From: an archaeon
Lineage (GTDB): Archaea; Nanobdellota; Nanobdellia; Pacearchaeales; GW2011-AR1
Length of the DNA stretch: 64,000 nucleotides
Direction of reading: 5' to 3'
NCBI GenBank assembly: GCA_024653565.1
Contig: JANLIK010000015.1
Location: 21,289-85,288 of the forward strand
The translations under genes and the position numbers were made by a program. Positions 2,827-61,019 of the stretch are shown here, in pieces (position 1 is the first letter of the stretch; every line of letters starts with the position of its first letter). The notes beneath the pieces are model-generated. The model was not told where the DNA came from. It saw only the letters and a list, made by a program, of their open reading frames with translations, and did not search any database.

Positions 2827-4481
2827 CAATCCTAACAGTAAACCGTAAGGAATTTGAAAAGAAAATTGGAAAGGTAACAAAAGAAATTGAAGAAAAAATT
2901 ACCAACATGGGAACACCCATAGAAGAGGTTACATCCACAGAAGTTTCTGTAGAAGTCTTTCCAAACCGACCCGATTTGCTAAGCCTACAGAATTTTGCTC
3001 TTGCAGTAAACCAATTCAATGGAAAGAGTGACTTGGCGAAGTTTAATATTCAAAAACCTGAAAAAGATTATCTTGTGAAGGTTGAAAAATCTGTAAAAAA
3101 CGTCAGACCACACACAGTTTGTGCAATTGTAAAGAATCTAAAGTTTGATAATGAAAAAATAAAGGAGATTATTGACCTACAAGAAAAACTTCATAATTCA
3201 ATTGGACGAAATAGAAAGAAAGTTGCAATAGGAATTTATCCTTTAGAAAAAATCAAACTCCCAATTACATTTTCTGCAAAAGAACCAGGAGATATAAATT
3301 TCCTTCCATTAGATTCTCCAGATAGGAAAGAAATGAATGGGAAACAAATTCTAAAAAATCATCCAACTGGAAAAGAATACGCACATCTTCTAGAGAATTC
3401 AGAAGTTTTTCCAATATTCACCGATGCTGATGGAAAGATTCTAAGCATGCCACCAATAATCAACTCGGAAGAGACTGGAAGAATAACCGAAAAAACCAAA
3501 GACATTTTTATTGAATGTTCGGGTCATAATTTGCACTATCTAAACAAATGCCTAAACATTATTATCCTTACACTTTCAGAAATGGGTGGAAAGATTTACT
3601 CTATGGACATCAAAGACCCATCAGGAAATCTAGTTACACCAGATATGACTTTTTCAGAAATGCCTTTCGAGATTAAAAACCTAGAAAAAACACTTGGAAT
3701 TGAATTAACCGAAAAACAAACCAGGAACTTTCTTGCCAAAATGGGTATAGGATATGATAATAGAAAGGGAAAAAGCATAGCCCTAATCCCTTCCTATAGG
3801 GCAGATGTATTGCATTGGATTGATTTAGCAGAGGATATTGCAATTGCATATGGTTATGAAAATTTTGAACCAGAAATTCCTGAGATATCAACTATTGGAG
3901 GAGAAGACCCTCATGGAAAAAATAAAAGAATAATCTCAGAAATCTTAGCCGGTCTTGGCTTATTAGAAACTTCTTCTTTTCATCTAGTTTTAAAGAAAGA
4001 TGTGAAAAAAATGCACTTTGATTATAAAGAGTTTATAGATATTGAGGACTCTAAAACAGATAGAGACACTCTTAGAATTGATTTATTAACAAATCTTCTA
4101 CAAATCTTCTCTGAAAACTCTAACGCGTCTTATCCTCAGAAGATTTTTGAAATGGGAAGAGTTTTCGCTCTGGACAGTTCAAAGGAAACTGAAACTGGGA
4201 TAAAAGAAACTGAAAGATTAGCAATTGCATTAGCTAATGAGGAGGTTAACTTCACCGAATTAAAACAAATATTAGATTATTTGTTTAAAATGCTTAACAA
4301 AGAATATTCAATTGAAGATGTTGAAGACAACAACTACATTAATGGTCGTTCTGGAAAAATTATCGTCGATAAAAAGACAATTGGACTAATTGGAGAAATT
4401 GCTCCAAGAGTTCTCAAAAACTGGAAGATTAAGATGCCTGTTGTTGCACTTGAAATTGATTTGGGATTTTTGAGTAACTAG
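2823..4481 (+). CDS. pheT: Phenylalanyl-tRNA synthetase beta subunit, archaeal type
   Basis: 552 aa, directly downstream of pheS. B3/4 and B5 domain-like regions with an archaeal beta-subunit architecture. Confidence 0.88.
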   Translation: MTILTVNRKEFEKKIGKVTKEIEEKITNMGTPIEEVTSTEVSVEVFPNRPDLLSLQNFALAVNQFNGKSDLAKFNIQKPEKDYLVKVEKSVKNVRPHTVCAIVKNLKFDNEKIKEIIDLQEKLHNSIGRNRKKVAIGIYPLEKIKLPITFSAKEPGDINFLPLDSPDRKEMNGKQILKNHPTGKEYAHLLENSEVFPIFTDADGKILSMPPIINSEETGRITEKTKDIFIECSGHNLHYLNKCLNIIILTLSEMGGKIYSMDIKDPSGNLVTPDMTFSEMPFEIKNLEKTLGIELTEKQTRNFLAKMGIGYDNRKGKSIALIPSYRADVLHWIDLAEDIAIAYGYENFEPEIPEISTIGGEDPHGKNKRIISEILAGLGLLETSSFHLVLKKDVKKMHFDYKEFIDIEDSKTDRDTLRIDLLTNLLQIFSENSNASYPQKIFEMGRVFALDSSKETETGIKETERLAIALANEEVNFTELKQILDYLFKMLNKEYSIEDVEDNNYINGRSGKIIVDKKTIGLIGEIAPRVLKNWKIKMPVVALEIDLGFLSN

Positions 4482-4841: not shown

Positions 4842-5381
4842 CTAACCAAAGTACCCTTTCTGTGTAGAATTTGAACTCTCATCAAAGTTGCCATTAAAGT
4901 TCTCAATTATTTTGAGAATCTTGTGTTTCATTTCTTGCCATTCTCCAAATGCCAGCTTAATAAATTCCGCTTCATTTTCTTCAGAATAAACAGTATCTAA
5001 TTTCATAATTCCTAACTCTAGTCTTGAAATATTTTTATAAATCTCTTTAATCTCCTTTCGGTCTTCCTCACTAATCTTTCTTAAAACAGAAAAAATAAAC
5101 ATTGGGGGGGCATTCGGACTAATCAATGTCTCAAATAAGTGCAAATATGCAGCAAGCTTTTCATTTATTCCACGCCTTATTTCTCTTAATAAAAAATTTG
5201 ATTCACTATCAAAAGTTTTCTCTATATCAAAATCTTCCGCCAACCCCTTAAATTCGGGCAAATCATATTGTTTTCTTAGTACCTCAAACTCCACCCTGTA
5301 GTCTCGTTCTGTTTTTTCCATTTTTTCGTTTCTCCTATTGAATAAAATGGAATCGAAGGTTCTACGAACCCACTTTTCCAT
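4842..5381 (-). CDS. Hypothetical protein (179 aa)
   Basis: An ORF with host-like AT-rich codon usage. No motif recognised. Confidence 0.5.
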   Translation of the reverse strand: MEKWVRRTFDSILFNRRNEKMEKTERDYRVEFEVLRKQYDLPEFKGLAEDFDIEKTFDSESNFLLREIRRGINEKLAAYLHLFETLISPNAPPMFIFSVLRKISEEDRKEIKEIYKNISRLELGIMKLDTVYSEENEAEFIKLAFGEWQEMKHKILKIIENFNGNFDESSNSTQKGYFG

Positions 5382-5440: not shown

Positions 5441-5513
<73 letters not shown>

Positions 5514-5637
5514 TCTTGCTTTAGGGATCAAATGTTTGATTCCGAACATCTTTGCTCTTGAGCTAGAATATAATTAATCAAGAGTGAAGTGTGAGCAGTC
5601 TGTGGCTTATGTTCAAACCCGGGACGTCACGGGCGAA

Positions 5638-6085: not shown

Positions 6086-7855
6086 ATGTGTGGAATTGTA
6101 GGATATTGGTCTGAAACAGAAAATGCGTTTGATATACTCCTAAACTCATTAAAAAAGTTAGAATATAGAGGGTATGACAGCTTTGGCTTTGCCACCCTAA
6201 ACAACAGAGATTTAATGACTGAAAGGAAGGTTGGAAAAATTAGTGATACCCAATGTGAAAGACTCCCAGGGAATATGGGAATCGGCCATACTCGGTGGGC
6301 CACACATGGGAAAGTAAATGAAATCAACTCTCACCCCCATAAAGATTGTTCTGGAAAAATCGCTGTAGTCCATAACGGGATAATAGAAAACTTCAAAGAG
6401 CTAAGAGATTATTTAGAAAAAACAGGACATACTCTTAGGAGTGAAACAGATACAGAAATATTAGCACATCTTTTAGAAGAGGGTTTGAAAAAAGGAATGA
6501 GTCTTAAAGAATCTGTGATAAGAATTTCCAATTTAGTCAGGGGAAGAAATTCTTTTGTAGCCTTATCTTCAGATACCGGAGAAATGATTGCTTCCAGAAA
6601 TGGTTCTCCACTAATCCTAGGTATAACTAATGGAAAAGAAGTGTTCATTGCCTCAGACATTCCTGCCTTTCTAGACAAAACAAAAAAGGTAACCTATCTA
6701 GATGACGGGCAGATTTGTTGTATAGGAGAACATTTAGAATTTTATGATTTTAAAACAGGGAATCAAGTCCAAAAGAGAGTTATTGAGATTGATTGGAAGG
6801 CGGAAGAAGCAGAACTTGGAGACTATAAACATTTTATGTTAAAAGAAATAATGGAACAAAAAGAAACACTCATTAGTGCTATGAATCAAAATAAAGAACA
6901 TCTAATTGAAGTTGCTAAAAGAATAAATGGGGCTAAAGGGGTATTCTTTATTGGGTGTGGAACCGCAGCGAGGGTATGCCATATTGCAGAATATGTTTTT
7001 TCTAAGGTTGCAAATAAACACATAAATTATATTACAGCCTCCGAATTTGAAAACTATGAACATTTTCTCCTCCCAGAAACGCTAGTAATCGCCGTTTCTC
7101 AAAGTGGAGAGACTGCAGATGTTCTAGACGCACTTAATATTGCAAAAAGAAAGGGTTGCAAGATTATTTCAATTTTGAATAACCCTGGTTCATCAATGGA
7201 AAGAATTTCAGATTACACTTTCCCAATTAATGCGGGTCCAGAAAAGGCGGTCGCATCCACCAAAGCCACAACCTCTCAAATCGCCGTAGTAATTCTTCTG
7301 GCATACGCATGTATAGAAAATATAAAGGAAGCAGATAGAATCCTCTTAGACCTTTCAGGAAAGGTCAATGATATGCTAAACCCAAGATATGAGGCACATA
7401 TAGGATATGTGGCCAAACAGGTCTATAAAAATAAAGACATATTCATAATTGGAAGAGGGATAAACTATCCTCTAGCCATAGAATCCGCAATAAAATTAAT
7501 GGAGGTTTCCTATATTCATGCCCAAGGTTTTGCGGGGGGAGAATTAAAACACGGACCCATTGCCCTAATCGAAAAAGGAACACCTGTTATTGCTTTAATT
7601 GCTGAAGACAAAACTAAAGAAGAAATTTTAAGCAACGCTATGGAAGTAAAATCACGTGGGGCTATAATAATTGGAGTTAGTCCAGAAAAAAACGAAATCT
7701 TTGATTATTGGATAAAAACTCCTAAGGTCGATGAAGTGGCCTCCGTAATCGCAAACCTGATTCCAATACAACTTTTGTCTTATAATATAGGCATTCTTAG
7801 AGGATACAATGTGGATTATCCTAGAAATTTAGCTAAAAGTGTTACTGTAAGATAG
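6086..7855 (+). CDS. glmS: Glutamine--fructose-6-phosphate aminotransferase (glucosamine-6-phosphate synthase)
   Basis: N-terminal MCGIVGY nucleophile of the Ntn amidotransferase domain, followed by two SIS domains. 589 aa. Confidence 0.9.
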   Translation: MCGIVGYWSETENAFDILLNSLKKLEYRGYDSFGFATLNNRDLMTERKVGKISDTQCERLPGNMGIGHTRWATHGKVNEINSHPHKDCSGKIAVVHNGIIENFKELRDYLEKTGHTLRSETDTEILAHLLEEGLKKGMSLKESVIRISNLVRGRNSFVALSSDTGEMIASRNGSPLILGITNGKEVFIASDIPAFLDKTKKVTYLDDGQICCIGEHLEFYDFKTGNQVQKRVIEIDWKAEEAELGDYKHFMLKEIMEQKETLISAMNQNKEHLIEVAKRINGAKGVFFIGCGTAARVCHIAEYVFSKVANKHINYITASEFENYEHFLLPETLVIAVSQSGETADVLDALNIAKRKGCKIISILNNPGSSMERISDYTFPINAGPEKAVASTKATTSQIAVVILLAYACIENIKEADRILLDLSGKVNDMLNPRYEAHIGYVAKQVYKNKDIFIIGRGINYPLAIESAIKLMEVSYIHAQGFAGGELKHGPIALIEKGTPVIALIAEDKTKEEILSNAMEVKSRGAIIIGVSPEKNEIFDYWIKTPKVDEVASVIANLIPIQLLSYNIGILRGYNVDYPRNLAKSVTVR

Positions 7856-37214: not shown

Positions 37215-37241
37215 GCACCCTTCACAAGAAAAGGAAAGATT

Positions 37242-37379
37242 ATGTATCACGTAGGAATAATCATAGTTTGTTTTTTGGTCGCCGTAATCGTCATCTTCTT
37301 TCTCCTTCGAGAAGTAGACAAAAGGGATCACAAAAAGTTCCGGGACGAGCAGGAAAAGTTCTGGGACGACAATCCATAG
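37242..37379 (+). CDS. Small single-TM peptide (45 aa) at the right edge of the G+C-rich island
   Basis: ORF with one TM helix and an AAGGAAAG SD-like upstream region. A long hairpin follows at 37400-37436. Confidence 0.3.
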   Translation: MYHVGIIIVCFLVAVIVIFFLLREVDKRDHKKFRDEQEKFWDDNP

Positions 37380-50537: not shown

Positions 50538-51809
50538 CTACCTTTCCTCTCTTACATCTCTCTTCCTCTTCATCTCTCCCTCAAATCCCCTATCCGTTGG
50601 TTCATAGAAAACTTCATCTTTAATTTCTGAAGGAAGATGCTCTTGTTCTACTTTAGCATCTTTGAAATCATGTGCATACCTATAACCTCCACCATAACCA
50701 ATGTTTTTCATAAATTGTGTTGGAGCATTACGAATGTTTAATGGAACTCCCAAATTTCCGGTTCTCTTTATCACTTCTTTTGCTTTGTTAACTGCCTCGT
50801 ATACCTTATTTGACTTAGGGGCGTTCGCCAAATATATTGCACATTGAATCAAAGCAGTATTACATTCAGGATACCCAAGAAATCTAACTGAGTGCATTGC
50901 ATTAACCGCAACTCCTAAAGCATTCGGGTCCGCATTCCCTATATCCTCACTTGCAAAACGAATCATTCTTCTGATTATATACTCTGGGTCTTCTCCAGCC
51001 TCAATCATCCTCATAGTCCAATAAATACTCGCTTGAACATCAGAATCTCTAAGACTCTTATGCATCGCAGAAATAATGTTATAATGTTCCTCTCCACCCT
51101 TATCATATCTCAAAGACTTTTGAACAGATGTCAAAATAATTTCCTTAGTCACTTCCTTGCCCTTAGTTAATGAACTAACCAACTCTAAAATATTCAGGGC
51201 GGCCCGAGCATCCCCATTAGATAAATTAGCAATTAGTTTCTTATTATCTTCATTAATATTCACATCATTAATCCCCTCTGGATGATTAATCGCCCGATTC
51301 AAAATAGAAAGTAAATCTCCCTCATTAAGAGATTGTAAAATGAAAACTCTGCTTCTTGAGAGCAATGGAGAAATAACTTCAAAACTGGGATTCTCTGTAG
51401 TCGCCCCCACAAGAGTAATTACCCCCGACTCAACAAATGGAAGCAAGAAGTCCTGTTGTAATTTATTAAATCTATGAATTTCATCCACAAATAAAATTGT
51501 CTTTTTCCCCATCAATCGAGAAGAATTTATAGCCCTTTCAATGTCTGCCTTCCCAGCCCTCACAGCACTAATCTCCACAAGGTCATAACCGACCAATTTA
51601 GACATGAGCCGAGCAAGTGTCGTCTTCCCACATCCCGGCGGCCCCCATAAAATAACCGACCCGGGCAGCTTATTATCTTCCAACATAATCCGAAGAGGCT
51701 TCCCCATCCCCAGCAAAGCCTCCTGCCCTATTACTTCATCTATGACTCGCGGACGTATACGATAAGCGAGGGGTGAGTTGCTATTAACTTTCATGTTAAA
51801 CCCCCACAT
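50538..51809 (-). CDS. rarA: Replication-associated recombination protein A (RarA/MgsA AAA+ ATPase)
   Basis: Walker A GPPGCGKTT, DEIHRFNKLQQD, GATTENPSFEV and ALLSRSRVF motifs characteristic of RarA/WRNIP1. Confidence 0.85.
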   Translation of the reverse strand: MWGFNMKVNSNSPLAYRIRPRVIDEVIGQEALLGMGKPLRIMLEDNKLPGSVILWGPPGCGKTTLARLMSKLVGYDLVEISAVRAGKADIERAINSSRLMGKKTILFVDEIHRFNKLQQDFLLPFVESGVITLVGATTENPSFEVISPLLSRSRVFILQSLNEGDLLSILNRAINHPEGINDVNINEDNKKLIANLSNGDARAALNILELVSSLTKGKEVTKEIILTSVQKSLRYDKGGEEHYNIISAMHKSLRDSDVQASIYWTMRMIEAGEDPEYIIRRMIRFASEDIGNADPNALGVAVNAMHSVRFLGYPECNTALIQCAIYLANAPKSNKVYEAVNKAKEVIKRTGNLGVPLNIRNAPTQFMKNIGYGGGYRYAHDFKDAKVEQEHLPSEIKDEVFYEPTDRGFEGEMKRKRDVREER

Positions 51810-52751: not shown

Positions 52752-53204
52752 CTAAGCCAAATCTTTAATTGTTTTTGCTTTTAGAAGTTTGTTTAGGGTA
52801 GTATATATCCTACCCTGAACATGACCCCTTCCCCTTCCAAGATTGTCTTTCTTTATAGTGTTTTTTAATTTAATCATCCGCTCAAAAAGAACTAGGTGGA
52901 ATGGGGGATTTGCATCTGGAAAACAGTAAAGCCAATAACCAAAACCAACCTCACCCTTACTCGCCTCCTTAAATGATTTAACCTTAGCATAATGAGTAAT
53001 TTTCCCACCAGTATAAAACGCAAAATACTTTAATATCTTCCTCGATCCTTTTGGAAAGGCAAAAAAGTTTTTCTTTTTTAGAATGTTCCAAGAGTAATCA
53101 TCTATAGAGACTACCACTACATCCCTTTCATCAGCCATTAATAGATGAAGAAGAAGATATTTATAAGGTTTCTTGAATTCCAGAATTGTCGGGAATAAAG
53201 TCAA
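52752..53204 (-). CDS. Hypothetical protein, possibly restriction-modification associated (150 aa)
   Basis: ORF overlapping the upstream gene. Co-directional with the methyltransferase. Confidence 0.4.
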   Translation of the reverse strand: MTLFPTILEFKKPYKYLLLHLLMADERDVVVVSIDDYSWNILKKKNFFAFPKGSRKILKYFAFYTGGKITHYAKVKSFKEASKGEVGFGYWLYCFPDANPPFHLVLFERMIKLKNTIKKDNLGRGRGHVQGRIYTTLNKLLKAKTIKDLA

Positions 53205-54003
53205 TCCTTATTACTCCCCGGAGTTTCTTTTTCTTTCCAGAGCTAGTAGATTGCATATAGATATCAAACTTACATATTCTATCCTCTTTTAGATAAAAGA
53301 GAACACTTATACCCTGGAAAGATATTCTAAGATTCTCCGGTTCCTTTCTCAGCTTCTCGAAAATGGAAGAAAATTTAGTACAATAACCCTTAAATTCTCC
53401 ATTTTTATTAACCACAGTCAAAAGAAGATTAGTTCCTCCCCTCATTTCTGAAAGTAAATTTTTAACAAAAGATATTTTGTCTATAGAAAATTCCCTACTC
53501 AAAATCTCGGCTAATTTTTGAGCTCCCCATTTCCCAATAACCTCTGATTTAACCATATCTTTTGAATAAAGATCACCCAATTCCAAATAATTCTTTTTTT
53601 CTTCGTTATCTAAAAAATCTTCAAATCCCTTACCCGTAAAGATTTTACAAAGAGAGTTTGGAGTAAAATTCCTAACATTAACTCCACTAAAATTATTTTG
53701 GGTTTTAAGAGAATATCCTTTCCTAGATCCGTCCACCAATTCTAATAAAATATCGAAATCTTCTCCACCTTGTTTTTTATTTTCCTCCCCAACAACTTTG
53801 GCAGTTTTTATTTCTTGTCCCACTAATTCCCTAATCTTTTCAGAAGCTTTTTTACTTGCTAAAATCACCCTATCTTGATCTATTTTCAATGAAAGCCGAT
53901 TTAGATACTCTTTTGATTTCTTCTTTAAATTTTCAGAATCATCTAAAAGGGAAGCTGTAGTCCATTCATGTGCTCTCCCAATTGAATCTATCTTTTGAGG
54001 CAT
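53161..54003 (-). CDS. Candidate type II restriction endonuclease (280 aa)
   Basis: Located immediately downstream of the C5-MTase. The segment GEDFDILLELVDGSRKGYSLK is compatible with a PD-ExK core. No family recognised. Confidence 0.35.
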   Translation of the reverse strand: MPQKIDSIGRAHEWTTASLLDDSENLKKKSKEYLNRLSLKIDQDRVILASKKASEKIRELVGQEIKTAKVVGEENKKQGGEDFDILLELVDGSRKGYSLKTQNNFSGVNVRNFTPNSLCKIFTGKGFEDFLDNEEKKNYLELGDLYSKDMVKSEVIGKWGAQKLAEILSREFSIDKISFVKNLLSEMRGGTNLLLTVVNKNGEFKGYCTKFSSIFEKLRKEPENLRISFQGISVLFYLKEDRICKFDIYMQSTSSGKKKKLRGVIRIDFIPDNSGIQETL

Positions 54004-54065: not shown

Positions 54066-55127
54066 TTAACCACTCAATTTTTTATCTCTTTTCATAATCT
54101 CTCGGGCTATTTCTTCAACAAGTTTTGGAGGAACAGCATTTCCAATTTGCTTTACAACATCTGCTCGATTCCCCGCGAACATATATTCTTTTGGAAAGCC
54201 CTGTATCTGTGCCAATTCCTTGTTTGTAAAATCTCTTAGAAAAAAACCTTTATTATTTTTTATTCCTACATATAATCTTGGTTGAAAACTATATCCACAA
54301 TGGATTGTCTTGGTAGGAGAGTCTAAGTTTGCCATCTCTATATGGTGGGGGGATATTCTTCTACCAAAAGAAATTTTCCCTTCTTTTAATTTCATTAATA
54401 AATAGGGATGTGGTTTCCCTGTTGGCTCTTCATCAGAATCATAGAATAATATATCCTTTTCCTTTAATTCATGAACCTCTGAGGGATTACTTTCAACAGA
54501 ATTTATATTAGTTAGTTCAATTAAATGCCTTATTGTGGGTAAATTATTCTTGGTGTGTAAGGGTTTTGGAAAACCAAACTCTATACCCTCTTTACTACCA
54601 ACAAAGAAAACCCTCCGCCTTTTTTGAGGGACTCCATATTCTTCCGCTTTCAAAACTTTTGGTTTAGCCATTTTATAACCGATTTCTTCAAATGCTTTAA
54701 CAATAACTTCCGCTACATCACTTTCCCCATCATCAGTTTTTCTATGTAATAATCCGGCAACATTTTCTCCAATTATCCATTTAGGTTTTATTAATTTTGT
54801 AGCTCTAACAAACTCCCAAAATAATTTATTCCTTGTATCGTTTGGGTCTTTCTTTCCAGCATGAGAAAATCCCTGACATGGAAACCCGGCAAATAAAACA
54901 TCAATTTGCCCCTCATATTTCCTAAACTCTTCATCAGAAATCTTGGTTATATCTCCCCCAACATCTTGCCCAATAAAAGTAGATTCTGGAAAATTGAGTT
55001 TATGTGTTTCAATTGCCCTCTTCCAGAATTCAACAAATCCCACAACCTTAATTCCAGCGTCCTCTAAACCTTGGGTATCTCCTCCACACCCAGCAAATAA
55101 GCTTATTGCCTTCCACTCTTTTTCCAT
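54066..55127 (-). CDS. DNA (cytosine-5)-methyltransferase
   Basis: Motif I FAGCGG, motif IV GFPCQGFS, motif VI GENV and motif X QIGNAV. Confidence 0.85.
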   Translation of the reverse strand: MEKEWKAISLFAGCGGDTQGLEDAGIKVVGFVEFWKRAIETHKLNFPESTFIGQDVGGDITKISDEEFRKYEGQIDVLFAGFPCQGFSHAGKKDPNDTRNKLFWEFVRATKLIKPKWIIGENVAGLLHRKTDDGESDVAEVIVKAFEEIGYKMAKPKVLKAEEYGVPQKRRRVFFVGSKEGIEFGFPKPLHTKNNLPTIRHLIELTNINSVESNPSEVHELKEKDILFYDSDEEPTGKPHPYLLMKLKEGKISFGRRISPHHIEMANLDSPTKTIHCGYSFQPRLYVGIKNNKGFFLRDFTNKELAQIQGFPKEYMFAGNRADVVKQIGNAVPPKLVEEIAREIMKRDKKLSG

Positions 55128-55256
55128 ATCAACCCCTAACCTCTTTCATTTAAAATGTTTTGTATACTCTTTTTAATTATGGAACACTTAGGCGCCTAAA
55201 CTTTATAAACCTTTCGGCGCCGATATCTTTAAATAATATTTCCTTTTAAAAAGGGG

Positions 55257-55412
55257 ATGAAGCTACAAAAACACTATACTCAAAAGGGAAAGAAATATCC
55301 TAAATATGAGGTGGTAATCCCAAAAGATGTAGTGAAAGACTCGGGTTTTAAAGAAGGTGATGAATTAGAAGCAACAGCAACAAAAGGAGAGATAAAACTA
55401 AAGAAAAAATGA
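55257..55412 (+). CDS. AbrB/MazE/SpoVT-type swapped-hairpin small protein (51 aa; antitoxin or regulator-like)
   Basis: EVVIPKDVVKDSGFKEGDELEATATKGEIKLKK matches the AbrB-like beta-barrel pattern. Overlaps the next gene by ATGA. Not in the ORF track because it is under 60 aa. Confidence 0.55.
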   Translation: MKLQKHYTQKGKKYPKYEVVIPKDVVKDSGFKEGDELEATATKGEIKLKKK

Positions 55413-56059
55413 CCACACACAAGCTCTCCCCCTCCGCCATTAATCTCATGAAAGACTGCCCCCGCTGTTTCTGGCTTACACAACACAAAGTATGGAAAAG
55501 ACCTTCAGGCCCCTTCCCATCTCTTCCCTCGGGCATGGACAAAATCTTAAAACACCACTTTAACAAATTCCGAGACAAGGGAGAACTACCTCCAGAACTC
55601 TGCGAACACCAACACTGCACAAACATGAAGCTATTTGATGATGAAGAAAAGATGAAAGTCTGGCAAAGCAACTTTAAGGGAATCTCATTCACAGACAAGG
55701 CCGGAAACGAACTTCATGGAGCAATAGATAATATCCTAGTCAAAGGCAAAAAACTAATCGTCCTAGATTACAAAACAAGGGGCTACGCCCTAAAAGAAGA
55801 TACTGCAGAACATTACAGACTCCAACAAAATACCTACAACTTCCTCCTAAGAAAAATCGGCCATGAAACAGAAGACTTCTTCTTCCTTTTATTCTATGTT
55901 CCAAAAGAAGTCGCCACAACCGGCGAAGTCATCTTTGATACCGAACTAGTTAAGATGAGGGTTGACACCAAAATGGCAGAAAAAGCCTGGAAGGATGCCT
56001 TGAAGCTGTTGAACGAAGATTGTCCAAAGAAGAGTTGCGGGTGGTGTGATGGGAGATGA
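55409..56059 (+). CDS. Cas4/RecB-like PD-(D/E)xK nuclease with a Cys cluster
   Basis: N-terminal CPRC, core D..ID...K..L.VLDYKT, and C-terminal C-x5-C-x2-C (CPKKSCGWCDG), consistent with a DUF83/Cas4-like FeS nuclease. Confidence 0.55.
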   Translation: MTTHKLSPSAINLMKDCPRCFWLTQHKVWKRPSGPFPSLPSGMDKILKHHFNKFRDKGELPPELCEHQHCTNMKLFDDEEKMKVWQSNFKGISFTDKAGNELHGAIDNILVKGKKLIVLDYKTRGYALKEDTAEHYRLQQNTYNFLLRKIGHETEDFFFLLFYVPKEVATTGEVIFDTELVKMRVDTKMAEKAWKDALKLLNEDCPKKSCGWCDGR

Positions 56060-56511
56060 CTTATTTTAAAAATATTAAAAGAACTACAGAAGAAATAATT
56101 AATCACAACAAACATATTTTATCTGTTAGTGGAGGGAATTTTGGAATTATAAATAAGTCAACTTTAGAGTTTGCAGTAGATTCAGTAAATAACGAAATAG
56201 ACCCAATAAAACAAGCAGGAAATTTTCTTTATTATGCAGGAGCAGGACATCCTTTTGAAAATGGAAATAAAAGAACTGCGTTTGAGATAGCAAAAGGAAT
56301 TATGGCTTCTGGGGCGATAGTTATTGATGCCTCTGAGACAGGGATAATTAATTTTGTTACTGGAAGTGTTGCTCAAGGAAAAACAGATGTAAAAACAGTT
56401 ACAAATTGGCTCTCTTCACATTCAAGACTTACAGATGAACATCCCGAATTTAATAGGATAACAAAAGAGAATATAGATAAAGATAAGGAGTTATTAAAAA
56501 AGCTTGATTAA
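56056..56511 (+). CDS. Doc/Fic family toxin-like protein
   Basis: Fic motif variant HPFENGNKRTA (the Doc-type HxFx(D/N)(A/G)NKR). Overlaps the upstream gene. Confidence 0.7.
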   Translation: MTYFKNIKRTTEEIINHNKHILSVSGGNFGIINKSTLEFAVDSVNNEIDPIKQAGNFLYYAGAGHPFENGNKRTAFEIAKGIMASGAIVIDASETGIINFVTGSVAQGKTDVKTVTNWLSSHSRLTDEHPEFNRITKENIDKDKELLKKLD

Positions 56512-56705
56512 AATTTCTGTGTAAAAAGCAGGTCCTTATTCAGACTTTCTTCCCAAAACATCTCCCACATCCCCCTTTGTGGTTTTGAACAAAACCACAA
56601 CCCTTAAATAATTCATCAACCCTGCTAACATAAAGAGGTAAAGATAGTAAAACATGGGCGCATCATCTTCGGGGGGATAAATGACAGAGGTTTCTAGTTT
56701 ATAAA

Positions 56706-57562: not shown

Positions 57563-57745
57563 ATGGTAAATGCGGTTTTAGAAGCTTTAGCTGAAGAGGC
57601 CCCTAGTGTAATGACTGCCGGAGAAGAAGCATATCTCTCTAGCATGATGCCCGAAGTAAGACAGGAAGGATATACCTGTGTTTCGGGGTGCAGTAATTGT
57701 GTCAGTTGCGATGGCAACGATCGCTACGCTTCAAAAGAAAAATAG
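57563..57745 (+). CDS. Candidate RiPP precursor peptide (60 aa; acidic leader plus C-terminal core with 5 Cys: YTCVSGCSNCVSCDGNDRY)
   Basis: Small ORF immediately upstream of a radical SAM/SPASM enzyme. Cys-rich C-terminal core. Confidence 0.5.
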   Translation: MVNAVLEALAEEAPSVMTAGEEAYLSSMMPEVRQEGYTCVSGCSNCVSCDGNDRYASKEK

Positions 57746-57797
57746 AATTTTAATTAGGGCCTATTTAAGAGGTTGTTTTAGATAGAAAGGTATTCAA

Positions 57798-58889
57798 ATG
57801 ACAAAAAAGCAACTGTTCATTCAATGGGATTCGACAAATGATTGTAATCTTAGGTGTCGCCATTGTTACCATAATGAAAAGGGTGAAAAAGCCCATAGAC
57901 AAGAAGACTCTGACTTAATGAGTCTCTCCGAAGTAGAAGACATGGTTGATGATCTTGTAGATACATCTCAAAGATGGGGTATGGACCCAAGGTTTCACAT
58001 TTCTGGTGGAGAACCTCTAAAGCGAAGGGATTTATTTAAAATCTTAGAGTATACTCAACAAAGGGGTGTAGCCACAAAAATTCTTACTAATGGAACCCTA
58101 ATAACACCTGAAAAAGCAAGAGCATTGAAAGAAAGAGGAATAAAAAGATTACAAATTTCAGTTGATGGAGACAGAGAAAGGCATAATGATGTAAGACAAA
58201 GACCCTATGCCTTTGATAGGGCTATGCAAGGTATTGCTAATTGTCGGGCAGAAGATATAGGAGTTACAGTCTCTTTTACAGCCATGCAATCAAACAAAGA
58301 CCATATTGAGCAGGCCATAAAAGATTCTATAGAGGCTGGAGCAGATATATTTGGAATTCAGTCCTATGTTCCAACAAGAGAGCTGGGAGTTAATGACCCC
58401 GAATTTATTGATGCAAAAGGGATGTATGATATTTATAAGGTCCAAAGAGAATTAGAAGAAAGATATGGAGATAAAATATCTCTCCTCGAAACAGAAGTCT
58501 TATGGCACTTAATGCATTGTGATGACCCTTTAAAAGAGGCTTCTAGAGAAAAAGGAAAATATTTAGGGGGTTGTGGTGCAGGATTTTCAGGAGTTGCAGT
58601 TCTTTCTAATGGAGTAGTTTATCCATGTAGAAGACTCCCAATAGAGATAGGGCATATTAGTGAAGGACTAGTTAGGCTTATCACAGAAAAGAAAGTCATG
58701 AAAGATTTAAGAGATTTGGAGCGTTTAAAAAAAGAATTTGGTTGTGAATATGTTTCTCACTGTAAGGGATGTAGAGCAATAGCATATGCAACAACAGGAG
58801 ATTTTATGAATAAAGACCCTATGTGTTTTAGAAACCTAGTTAAACCAGGAGACCTCAAGGACAGGTATACAAAAGATGCAACCAGCTAA
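57798..58889 (+). CDS. Radical SAM protein with a C-terminal SPASM domain (peptide-modifying maturase type)
   Basis: CNLRCRHCY (CxxxCxxC) motif and C-terminal auxiliary-cluster cysteines (CGAGFSG...C, CKGCRAIAY...C). Confidence 0.85.
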   Translation: MTKKQLFIQWDSTNDCNLRCRHCYHNEKGEKAHRQEDSDLMSLSEVEDMVDDLVDTSQRWGMDPRFHISGGEPLKRRDLFKILEYTQQRGVATKILTNGTLITPEKARALKERGIKRLQISVDGDRERHNDVRQRPYAFDRAMQGIANCRAEDIGVTVSFTAMQSNKDHIEQAIKDSIEAGADIFGIQSYVPTRELGVNDPEFIDAKGMYDIYKVQRELEERYGDKISLLETEVLWHLMHCDDPLKEASREKGKYLGGCGAGFSGVAVLSNGVVYPCRRLPIEIGHISEGLVRLITEKKVMKDLRDLERLKKEFGCEYVSHCKGCRAIAYATTGDFMNKDPMCFRNLVKPGDLKDRYTKDATS

Positions 58890-59379
58890 ACCTATAATTG
58901 TGGAGATTATGCAAAAATTAAACCCTACATCTGTTTTGGATATCGGCTGTGGTAAATGTAAATTTTCTCAAAAATTTATTGACTTGGGAATAAATGTAAT
59001 AGGAATTGATAGAAAACCCACAACCCAATCATCAGAGAATTTCACATTCATCCAACAAGACATATTAGACTTTAAATTCGAGCCGAAATACGATTTAATT
59101 GTTGGGACGGGGATTTTACATTTGTTAAAAGAAGAAGAAGCTAAACAATTAATAAAAAAAATGCAAAAAAACACTATTAGAGAAGGCTTCCACTTTCTAA
59201 TTTGTATGTCTAATGAAGAGAATCCAGAAAACGAGATTTATTTTTATCCAGATGAAGAGGTATTAAATAAATTATACCCTGATTGGGAAATCATTTACAA
59301 TACCTCTGTGCTTTCCAAAGAACATGGTAAACCCCCACATCGACATAAAATGATTTTATTTCTGGCCAAAAAGGTTTAA
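58876..59379 (+). CDS. Class I SAM-dependent methyltransferase
   Basis: VLDIGCGKCKFS glycine-rich SAM-binding motif. Confidence 0.7.
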   Translation: MQPAKPIIVEIMQKLNPTSVLDIGCGKCKFSQKFIDLGINVIGIDRKPTTQSSENFTFIQQDILDFKFEPKYDLIVGTGILHLLKEEEAKQLIKKMQKNTIREGFHFLICMSNEENPENEIYFYPDEEVLNKLYPDWEIIYNTSVLSKEHGKPPHRHKMILFLAKKV

Positions 59380-59380
59380 C

Positions 59381-60118
59381 ATGGAAGATTTTAATCGGAA
59401 TTTTTCAGAGGTTTACGAAGTTGAAGGACAAAAAATTGTATCTAAAAGACACCAAAAGCCAATTTTCCTAAGAAGAGAATTATTCTTTTATGATTTGTTC
59501 CAAAAAACAGGATTAGTTAGAACGCCAAAAGTTTATGGGGTTGAAGGGCTTTGTCTCAAAACACATTTTATAGAAACTGAAAAAAAAGACATTCTTCAAA
59601 CAGCCGCAGAATGGGCAAGAGTCCATTCATATTTTATAAAAAATCCCCTTCCTAATAATCGATTGTTATTCCCCCATAACATACAGGCTGTTGCCTCATT
59701 TATTCTTGAAAATAAGGATGCCTTCGGTGAACTTGGGGCTCTTGTTGAAAAAGCACTATCTGACTTAAAAGTAGAAATGGAATTAACAACAATTCTTCAT
59801 GGAGACTTACAGGACAAAAATATGGTCACATTTCAGGGGCAAAATTATTATTTTGATTTTGAGTTAAGTGGACTGGGACATCCTGGGAGAGATGTTGCCT
59901 CAATGATAATCTCTAACCCAGATAGAAGGAAGGAGATAGAAAGAATTTATAGAACAAATATTGATTTTGATTATTCTCTTCTTGGAGAAGACACAAATAC
60001 ATGGCTAATAGCAAGAGCAGCAGAATTATATTTAATACTTAGTAAAAGAAAAGGTCCAACAGAAGTAAAAAGGAGGATTAAAAGTAGATTATTAGATATT
60101 ATTCAAAGTTCTAAATAA
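59381..60118 (+). CDS. Aminoglycoside/choline-kinase-like phosphotransferase (APH fold)
   Basis: Brenner-like motif HGDLQDKN and a downstream D...G motif. Confidence 0.6.
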   Translation: MEDFNRNFSEVYEVEGQKIVSKRHQKPIFLRRELFFYDLFQKTGLVRTPKVYGVEGLCLKTHFIETEKKDILQTAAEWARVHSYFIKNPLPNNRLLFPHNIQAVASFILENKDAFGELGALVEKALSDLKVEMELTTILHGDLQDKNMVTFQGQNYYFDFELSGLGHPGRDVASMIISNPDRRKEIERIYRTNIDFDYSLLGEDTNTWLIARAAELYLILSKRKGPTEVKRRIKSRLLDIIQSSK

Positions 60119-60140
60119 TCTTTTATTAAAACTCAATAAG

Positions 60141-61019
60141 ATGCCTACATTTGAAACTAGGTCAAAAGTTTATCCATTTACTACAGAAAATCTTGCAGGA
60201 TACATGCCTAATTTAAATTTAGAAGGAAAGAAAGTTCTAACAGTCACAGGTTCTGCAGACCATATGATAAATTCTTTTTTATTTGGAGCAGAAGATGTTG
60301 TTTGTTTTGACATAAATACTCTTGCTACTTTCTTTGCAGAACTTAAAATTAAAGCATTAAAAAGGTTAGATTTTGAGCAGTTCAAAAGATTCTTTTTACT
60401 AGGCGATGGAGGAACAATGGATTTTAAGGTTTACTCTTCCATAAGAAACGAATTATCTCTTGGTTGCGTTAGATTTTTTGATGGAGTCTACAGAATCAAT
60501 GAAATGGATGGGGAAGAAGTTCGAAGATCAAAGTTATTTAATAAAAGATTTGATATTGATAAATTAAGAATTCGAAGTAATCCTTATTTACATTCAGAAG
60601 AACAATATGAAGCAGTTAGAGCAAGAGTAAAATCGGAGGTTAAATTAATCAACTCATCTGCCAAAGACTTAGCATCTAAATTAGATGAAGAATTTGGGGT
60701 AGTCATGCTCTCAAATCTAGCCGATTATACTCAAAGTATGTTTCCCCATAGTCCTAATCATCTAGAAAGATTCTGTAGGAAAATAGTCTCTCCAATAAGA
60801 GATCATTTAAGCCAGGGAGGGGTTATTTGTGGCGCCTATGTTTATGATGCAAGCCCGATGGGAGAAAAAACCCCAAGATATAAGGGTCCTGTAGATGACC
60901 CTGCAAAAAGAAGAACAAGTTTTGAAACTTTAGAAATGGCTTATGAAGAAAGAAAATTTCCATGTATTGTCCCAGGTAAAGAAGATAGGGAAGATTTAGT
61001 AGTTATATTGACTAAATAA
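60141..61019 (+). CDS. Methyltransferase-like protein (DUF3419-like; weak)
   Basis: VLTVTGSADHMINSFLFGAEDVVCFDIN resembles a SAM-binding region. Low certainty. Confidence 0.4.
   Translation: MPTFETRSKVYPFTTENLAGYMPNLNLEGKKVLTVTGSADHMINSFLFGAEDVVCFDINTLATFFAELKIKALKRLDFEQFKRFFLLGDGGTMDFKVYSSIRNELSLGCVRFFDGVYRINEMDGEEVRRSKLFNKRFDIDKLRIRSNPYLHSEEQYEAVRARVKSEVKLINSSAKDLASKLDEEFGVVMLSNLADYTQSMFPHSPNHLERFCRKIVSPIRDHLSQGGVICGAYVYDASPMGEKTPRYKGPVDDPAKRRTSFETLEMAYEERKFPCIVPGKEDREDLVVILTK

Follow-up and report, generated by a model that had tools for sequence, protein, structure and literature searches.

When three genes of an archaeon overlap one another and resemble an antitoxin, a nuclease and a toxin, do they form one system? 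The question is raised by positions 55257–56511 of a 64,000-nucleotide (nt) stretch of contig JANLIK010000015.1 (the window, meaning that whole stretch), in which a small AbrB-fold gene, a solo Cas4-like nuclease gene and a Doc-type Fic gene follow one another on the + strand. An earlier note on this DNA suggested that they might be a composite toxin-antitoxin or defence module, perhaps in a defence islet, with a nuclease inserted between an AbrB antitoxin and its Doc toxin. We favour, as the probable explanation, three independent units, co-transcribed but not a composite toxin-antitoxin system, whose juxtaposition is specific to this lineage and lies in a variable defence islet around a resident solo Cas4-like gene.

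Three overlapping genes

The genes and the end of their putative transcript are as follows.

55257..55412, + strand: AbrB/SpoVT-fold protein of 51 residues, predicted to bind DNA; PF04014 (MazE_antitoxin/AbrB), E = 6.6e-8 over residues 19–51, above the curated cutoff
55409..56059, + strand: solo Cas4-like PD-(D/E)xK nuclease of 216 residues; PF12705 (PDDEXK_1), E = 6.4e-10, 39.8 bits against a cutoff of 22
56056..56511, + strand: Doc-type Fic protein of 151 residues; PF02661 (Fic/DOC), E = 2.3e-7, above the curated cutoff
56577..56600, + strand: hairpin TTGTGGTTTT-GAAC-AAAACCACAA, 66 nt past the Doc stop codon, read from the sequence and possibly the transcript end

N-termini are conserved among the homologs of AbrB, nuclease and Doc alike, so the start codons of all three genes are real, and with them the 4-nt ATGA overlaps at the AbrB/nuclease and nuclease/Doc junctions. 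Much of the earlier description was borne out. Its coordinates and overlaps are correct, its short upstream frame is a genuine conserved gene with 73 homologs, its second gene belongs to the Cas4/RecB fold group, and its third is a Doc-type Fic gene with the motif HPFENGNKRTA. Between the AbrB start (55257) and the Doc start (56056) no TATA-like motif was seen, which makes a single transcript likely; judged by sequence, the three genes are probably read together from the AbrB promoter. Nuclease genes that have an upstream intergenic region of their own at other loci do carry a TATA-like motif.

The order AbrB-nuclease-Doc occurs in this genome only. No AbrB or nuclease locus examined besides the window has AbrB directly upstream of the nuclease, and the composite module proposed earlier is unsupported. 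The contexts of Doc were compared across a small sample of nine loci, the window included. In all eight others (L007–L013 and L128, loci of close homologs), AbrB and nuclease are absent from the vicinity of Doc and no conserved small gene lies upstream of it, which argues against an original AbrB-Doc pair split by a nuclease. An adjacent, co-inherited antitoxin is thus lacking on both counts: a 216-residue nuclease gene separates AbrB from Doc here, and AbrB is missing from the other Doc-family loci.

An AbrB protein facing methyltransferase genes

The AbrB homologs are nearly all 50–58 residues long (three are longer). The window's protein consists of a basic N-terminal arm and the fold (residues 19–51), without C-terminal extension. 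Since the protein stops with its fold at residue 51, there is no room for a toxin-binding C-terminal tail, the extension beyond the DNA-binding domain by which an antitoxin would be recognized. TIGR02609 (doc_partner) matches weakly (E = 1e-5, 25.8 bits against a cutoff of 55.9), over profile positions 12–43 of 74. A sequence search of AbrB against the PDB returned weak matches alone.

Genomic contexts were compared at nine independent AbrB loci (the window, L052, L110, L113, L116, L119, L121, L123 and L125). In eight of the nine, AbrB is divergent from a methyltransferase gene of a restriction-modification (RM) system, and three methyltransferase families are represented. AbrB stands opposite a Dcm gene in the window, L052, L113 and L125, opposite an N4/N6 methyltransferase in L110, L116 and L119 (in L119 with an SNase gene between), and opposite an MmeI-like type IIG enzyme in L121. 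The genes concerned in the window are the following.

54066..55127, − strand: C5-cytosine DNA methyltransferase (Dcm type), divergent from AbrB; PF00145, 3.8e-71; PADLOC MTase_II, 1.5e-78
53161..54003, − strand: protein of 280 residues downstream of Dcm, without Pfam, NCBIfam or PADLOC match; by position a candidate restriction endonuclease
52752..53204, − strand: protein of 150 residues overlapping the end of the 280-residue gene, without Pfam, NCBIfam or PADLOC match

The RM locus that the earlier note placed beside the three genes is therefore secure in its Dcm methyltransferase; the restriction-enzyme label of the 280-residue neighbour is one of position, because that protein matches no family. 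PADLOC called no known defence system for the AbrB, 280-residue or 150-residue genes.

The gene 3' of AbrB varies. It is the nuclease in the window, an APH-type kinase in L113, a GHKL ATPase in L110, a 463-residue protein in L123 and an unrelated small membrane protein in each of L052, L116, L121 and L125. The other side holds a further recurrent gene, divergent from AbrB in six loci, that encodes a conserved hydrophobic membrane peptide of 34–53 residues (MxCY[HY]K[ED]xFxxGxL...).

L113:3798-3923, − strand: membrane-peptide gene
L116:3819-3923, − strand: membrane-peptide gene
L121:3284-3424, − strand: membrane-peptide gene
L123, start at 3424, − strand: membrane-peptide gene
L125:3272-3391, − strand: membrane-peptide gene
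L052:7339-7500, − strand: membrane-peptide gene

Its start lies 77–78 nt from the AbrB ATG in five loci and 110 nt away in L125. Except in L123, the peptide gene is upstream of, and on the same strand as, the RM methyltransferase gene; neither the window nor L110 has it.

Distant AbrB-fold genes were also seen in L125 (4213-4383 and 6925-7095), directly before an N4/N6 methyltransferase-DndB pair of the same islet; DndB is present in L123 and L125. In these archaea, then, DNA-modification modules seem to be headed repeatedly by small AbrB proteins.

A two-box promoter that varies with its protein

Upstream of AbrB, all nine loci share a promoter architecture of about 60 bp, comprising two 6-bp boxes with a TATA-like element after each. 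The elements in the window are listed below.

55191..55196, + strand: operator-like box 1 (GGCGCC), position conserved upstream of AbrB in nine loci
55202..55209, no strand assigned: TATA-like element 1 (TTTATAAA, palindromic) between the boxes, from sequence comparison across loci
55216..55221, + strand: operator-like box 2 (GGCGCC), conserved in nine loci
55228..55235, + strand: TATA-like element 2 (TTTAAATA), about 25 nt before the AbrB ATG, conserved in nine loci

The boxes are 25 bp apart in eight of the nine loci and further apart in L125. They vary as a pair, both reading GGCGTC in L119, GGTCTC in L052 and GGTACC in L125. Where the boxes differ, the N-terminal arm of AbrB differs as well, independently of methyltransferase family, which speaks for a cognate operator and against an RM recognition site. 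Among the seven GGCGCC sites of the window, only box 1 and box 2 form a close pair.

A role of the GGCGCC boxes as the recognition site of Dcm was considered and rejected, as the same boxes stand beside N4/N6 and MmeI-like methyltransferase genes and vary with the AbrB sequence.

In archaeal promoters, a TATA-like element some 25 nt before the ATG fits a leaderless or nearly leaderless mRNA, and TATA-like element 2 would give AbrB such a message. Leftward firing of TATA-like element 1 is plausible because in other loci the divergent peptide gene starts so near to AbrB. AbrB would bind both boxes and autoregulate, and the divergent layout suggests that it also regulates the methyltransferase gene. 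In the window, where this module sits directly before the nuclease gene, it would set transcription of nuclease and Doc and might also act on the Dcm gene opposite.

The arrangement is reminiscent of the controller (C) proteins of RM systems. Both have a small DNA-binding protein encoded at or in an RM cassette, here beside a methyltransferase gene in eight of nine loci, and paired promoter boxes like C-boxes, here in nine of nine. They differ in fold, the swapped hairpin of AbrB/SpoVT rather than the Xre-like helix-turn-helix of C proteins. They differ also in layout: the restriction gene lies beyond the methyltransferase gene and not downstream of AbrB, whose downstream gene is variable. The AbrB regulator with its co-varying two-box promoter, linked to RM methyltransferases and a membrane peptide, is a new element; a literature search for AbrB-type RM regulators, judged by titles and abstracts, brought up nothing relevant. 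We hypothesize, tentatively and with doubt outweighing belief, that the 51-residue protein and its two-box, two-TATA promoter are an undescribed portable control module of DPANN defence islets, an AbrB-type analogue of C proteins. Box binding would gate the peptide and RM methyltransferase genes on the left and AbrB with its cargo on the right, and would here tie nuclease and Doc expression to the state of the RM system.

A probably resident Cas4-like nuclease

The nuclease belongs to a large family. Among its 3465 homologs the best 120 are 75–100% identical to it and mostly 215–230 residues long. Relatives turned up in 75 species-representative genomes in a pattern-limited scan that took one genome for each species; full-length matches were 47–83% identical. 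Relatives come from Pacearchaeota/Woesearchaeota metagenome-assembled genomes, and identical proteins are recorded from such genomes labelled 'archaeon' and 'Nanoarchaeota archaeon'. An exact-protein look-up of the window's own nuclease gave no record.

Invariant residues include D107, D120-Y-K122 and Q139-x3-Y143, the RecB/Cas4 active-site motifs, together with C17, C20, C210 and C213; a RecB-type PD-(D/E)xK active site with QxxxY is thus present. Sequence searching against the PDB produced weak matches alone, and a fold search was used instead. With an AlphaFold2 model (predicted local distance difference test score, pLDDT, 80), Foldseek placed Cas4 structures first (7mi4, 4ic1, 8d3l), followed by RecE, MGME1 and the nuclease domains of AdnA, RecB and AddA. 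Matches to Cas4 models are weak (3.6e-7 in PADLOC), and the protein, which matches PF12705, is set apart from Cas4 proper by a TIGR00372 score of 19.3 bits against a cutoff of 65.

The cysteines also depart from Cas4. In Cas4, AddB and Dna2 the 'iron staple' cysteines are arranged 1+3, as C...CX2CX5C. Across nuclease homologs of 47–100% identity the cysteines kept are C17, C20, C210 and C213, a CxxC...CxxC (2+2) set, whereas distant homologs have lost C65, C70 and C205, the first cysteine of CPKKSC. This sets the pattern apart from the 1+3 of Cas4 and AddB, and the family lacks the C...CX2CX5C arrangement of the four-cysteine Fe-S site. The CPRC and CPKKSCGWC motifs pointed out earlier are present, then, but their supposed Cas4-like arrangement does not hold. 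This 2+2 cysteine variant of a solo Cas4-like nuclease is a new element.

Among the scanned genes of the window and the scanned nuclease neighbours no cas genes were found, so linkage to cas1/cas2 is lacking. The match to PF12705, the stand-alone gene and its conservation across the lineage identify the nuclease as one of the solo Cas4-like nucleases of DPANN archaea. It shares with them a RecB/Cas4 core of about 215 residues with D, DxK and QxxxY, the absence of cas1/cas2, lineage-wide conservation and frequent adjacency to RM genes (PMC5704561). Hudaiberdiev et al. (2017; PMC5704561) reported that most DPANN archaea encode solo-Cas4, mainly by vertical inheritance, and that it adjoins RM genes in several DPANN genomes.

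Nuclease neighbourhoods were compared at 68 non-redundant loci, retrieved among relatives sharing peptide words with the query, with genes called by a crude longest-open-reading-frame rule. The flanks vary among loci and include primase, gyrase, prefoldin, type I RM and MmeI-like RM genes and many of no assigned family. At no fewer than 27 of the 68 loci, an RM-related gene is a first or second neighbour of the nuclease. The largest neighbour clusters are RM genes: a 22-member cluster of N6-methyltransferase, type I and type IIG proteins covers 20 loci, an N4/N6 methyltransferase cluster occurs at six, and Dcm and D12 methyltransferases are also among the neighbours. As background, drawn from one window, the 48 genes of window positions 1–47 kb show no DNA methyltransferase among 25 listed of 45 Pfam families. 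With RM genes the commonest neighbours of the nuclease family elsewhere, the defence islet suggested earlier gains support. A non-defence, housekeeping context, MgtE-MgtE-nuclease-HAD, also recurs, with nucleases 65–79% identical to the query. The earlier note had held that alignment of the nuclease to a housekeeping family without the cysteine cluster would count against it; the family is indeed housekeeping-like, but the cluster is retained.

Two loci carry duplications of the nuclease 3' end, the scar expected of cassette insertion at that point. In L072 a 143-nt direct repeat of the 3' end (87% identical; 5154-5296 and 6301-6443) lies 1147 nt downstream and flanks two genes. In L070 a 49-nt repeat (5587-5635 and 6207-6255) has its copies 620 nt apart. 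It would seem that small gene cassettes have repeatedly inserted at the nuclease 3' end. A further remnant of a nuclease 3' end was seen in L006 (4648-4728), downstream of the inserted gene or genes. No nuclease remnant was found elsewhere in the window.

The nuclease would accordingly be a lineage-conserved, mainly vertically inherited resident whose flanks are a recurrent landing place of RM and accessory or defence genes. Its role might lie in DNA end processing, perhaps of restriction products, and it may cooperate with restriction.

A solitary Doc-type Fic protein

Doc belongs to a small family, with 32 homologs, and scores just below the cutoff of TIGR01550 (DOC_P1), at 33.7 bits against 38.65. 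A sequence search against the PDB again yielded weak matches alone and was replaced by a fold search. The AlphaFold2 model (pLDDT 95) superposes best on P1 Doc (3k33/3dd7), over about 123 residues with a TM-score of 0.81 normalised to the target (3k33). This leaves the two C-terminal helices as an addition. The two distinctive features of the protein are given below.

56248-56274, + strand: Doc motif H65-R73 (HPFENGNKR), with H65, F67, G70, N71, K72 and R73 invariant in 30 sequences
about 56449-56505, + strand: C-terminal two-helix extension, residues 132–150, conserved and family-specific

Both the Doc fold and the Doc motif HxFx(D/N)(A/G)NKR are thus in place. AMPylating Fic proteins have Gly where this motif has Lys. 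By analogy with P1 Doc, the protein would be a solitary enzyme with an intact catalytic motif, acting as a kinase on elongation factor and blocking translation elongation; activity and target are both taken from that comparison.

The extension of roughly 25 residues, which P1 Doc lacks, has the consensus FNxITxENIEKDKELLKKLD, and this conserved tail of the Doc family is a new element. Regulation of the enzyme in cis by the extension is speculation. An [ST]xxxE-like stretch occurs in the tail of most family members; the window's copy has K and D there. A fused Phd-like neutralising helix was considered for the tail and rejected: a tail profile found no Phd or Fic inhibitor helix in the PDB, its best matches being xylanases at E 0.3.

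Other Doc loci share a setting rather than a partner. RM genes, a transposase or a small tyrosine recombinase lie near Doc in several of them (RM/transposase in L009 and L128). Relative to Phd-Doc and MazE-Doc systems (P1 Doc, 3k33/3dd7; TIGR01550/TIGR02609), the window has the Doc fold and motif and an AbrB-fold gene in the operon, but no antitoxin gene directly upstream of Doc, and the family is solitary elsewhere. A survey of solitary Fic (SoFic) genes found them enriched in DPANN archaea (PMC12988326). Our Doc resembles SoFic in being a single, partnerless gene of the Fic superfamily, in defence-type neighbourhoods of small-genome archaea. It differs in its NKR motif, where SoFic has the AMPylase GNGR, and is much shorter. 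No SoFic model appeared among its PADLOC matches, which are just weak candidate PDC matches at E ~1e-3.

One system or three units?

Several associations weigh against three independent units. A Doc-like gene follows the nuclease in L047 (5627-6085; 40% identical to the window's Doc), where it overlaps the nuclease end, and in L110 (1268-1708; 37% identical), with a gene for a 66-residue membrane protein between. In four contexts (the window, L110, L119 and L104) no more than 3 kb separates AbrB from a Fic or Doc gene, and in six of the nine AbrB contexts a nuclease is present within about 6 kb of AbrB. L104 even carries an in-frame nuclease::AbrB fusion (939-1475), joining a C-terminal nuclease part to an almost complete AbrB domain. 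As this nuclease part lacks the N-terminal ~97 residues, the locus may be decaying; a 313-residue Fic protein (HPFADGNGR) is encoded there convergently with the fusion. Such recurrent associations are expected of genes that share islets. They nevertheless recur above what pure accident would give, and functional coupling inside the islet is a possibility.

The strongest form of coupling would be a composite type II toxin-antitoxin system, with AbrB as antitoxin and repressor, Doc as toxin and the nuclease as an inserted or recruited third component. MazE/AbrB-fold antitoxins paired with Doc are known, examples being TIGR02609, named 'doc_partner', and the mazE-doc system TasA-TasB (PMC1626090), and AbrB does match TIGR02609, if weakly. 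Also in favour are the gene overlaps, the probable single promoter and the presence of Fic or Doc near AbrB in four contexts. We nevertheless judge such a system improbable. AbrB has no toxin-binding tail, its doc_partner match is partial, and its gene stands beside no close Doc homolog. Of the eight AbrB contexts outside the window, L110 has a Doc-like gene and L119 a long Fic gene, but in both cases the gene lies apart from AbrB rather than next to it in an operon. What AbrB homologs consistently accompany is not Doc but methyltransferases and a small membrane peptide, and the three-gene order is confined to one genome. Much the same slender chance is given to a nuclease-Doc pair in which, for example, DNA damage or foreign DNA sensed by the nuclease frees Doc as effector and AbrB is just a regulator. 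Three genomes (the window, L047 and L110) have a Doc-family gene downstream of the nuclease, with divergent Doc sequences; yet these are three of about 70 nuclease loci, and the closest Doc homologs have no nuclease. The gene after the nuclease is highly variable and often shows the same 4-nt overlap, which indicates that tight coupling, being the rule in these compact genomes, does not point to partnership. In L047 and L110, moreover, the Doc-like proteins have Gln for the catalytic His (QPFTNGNKR and QPFTNANKR) while keeping the tail KDKEMLKK[LM]D, and may on this sequence evidence be inactive or repurposed.

A further alternative makes the nuclease a mobile RM accessory subunit and the 52.7–56.5 kb block one horizontally acquired cassette of RM genes plus accessories. 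Its appeal lies in RM operons of type I/IIG in which the nuclease gene comes last at gaps of 1–5 nt (L035, L045, L048, L051, L088, L091 and L092), and in the 42% GC of the nuclease gene against ~33–35% in its neighbours. Contexts that are free of RM genes and housekeeping in kind occur, however, throughout the identity range of the family, and the RM types beside the nuclease are diverse (type I, IIG, Dcm, N4/N6). According to the literature (PMC5704561), solo-Cas4 is passed on mainly by vertical descent. No meaningful direct repeats were found in 51.8–57.2 kb, nor any integrase or att-like duplication bracketing the block. Viral contigs in IMG/VR hold no AbrB or Doc relative and one nuclease relative, on which count a viral origin was also rejected. 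We consider the mobile accessory unlikely, and retain three evolutionarily independent units, with the nuclease as the resident one, as the best-supported account.

Surroundings of the islet

The window comes from the chromosome of a DPANN archaeon of Pacearchaeota/Woesearchaeota (GTDB Nanoarchaeota) type. It has ~35% GC and encodes aminoacyl-tRNA synthetases, PolB, FEN1 and MgsA. One tRNA gene is present (5441-5513) and none lies near the islet; an Rfam scan of the window found nothing besides this tRNA. Just upstream of the islet are genes for an Hjc-related endonuclease (PF10107; 48667-49110) and an MgsA/WRNIP-type AAA+ ATPase (50538-51809), which place the nuclease in a DNA-maintenance neighbourhood.

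Two further features of the window lie outside the islet. An island of about 7 kb (30300-37300) has 62% GC against ~35% for the genome, and stems either from horizontal transfer out of a GC-rich donor or from chimeric assembly. It encodes a 979-residue protein with major-vault-protein shoulder and vault-repeat domains (31378-34317), an M29 aminopeptidase (34443-35795) and two proteins without family match. Beyond Doc, a 60-residue Cys-rich open reading frame (57563-57745) stands directly 5' of a radical SAM/SPASM enzyme gene (57798-58889), followed by genes for a methyltransferase, an APH-like kinase and a DUF3419 protein. The layout of this block (57563-61019) resembles that of a modified-peptide cluster, like those for ribosomally synthesised and post-translationally modified peptides.

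Implications

For DPANN archaea, whose genomes are tiny, whose recognised defence systems are few and for which genetic tools are lacking, neighbourhood logic is the main source of knowledge on immunity. The present locus illustrates that an operon with the look of a toxin-antitoxin system can be a lineage-specific juxtaposition, which pipelines that pair any AbrB with a nearby Doc would mislabel. The nuclease-RM link, the theme of solitary Fic proteins and composite MazE-Doc systems are already in the literature, and the locus lacks the defining features of the last. The 2017 remark on adjacency of solo-Cas4 and RM genes is extended here by the count over 68 loci and by the apparent traces of cassettes inserted where the nuclease gene has its 3' end. 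The two-box promoter offers a testable cis-element with a cognate small regulator, whose N-terminal arm changes together with the boxes. If confirmed, it would represent a new fold class of RM-associated regulator and provide a handle on the control of toxic defence genes.

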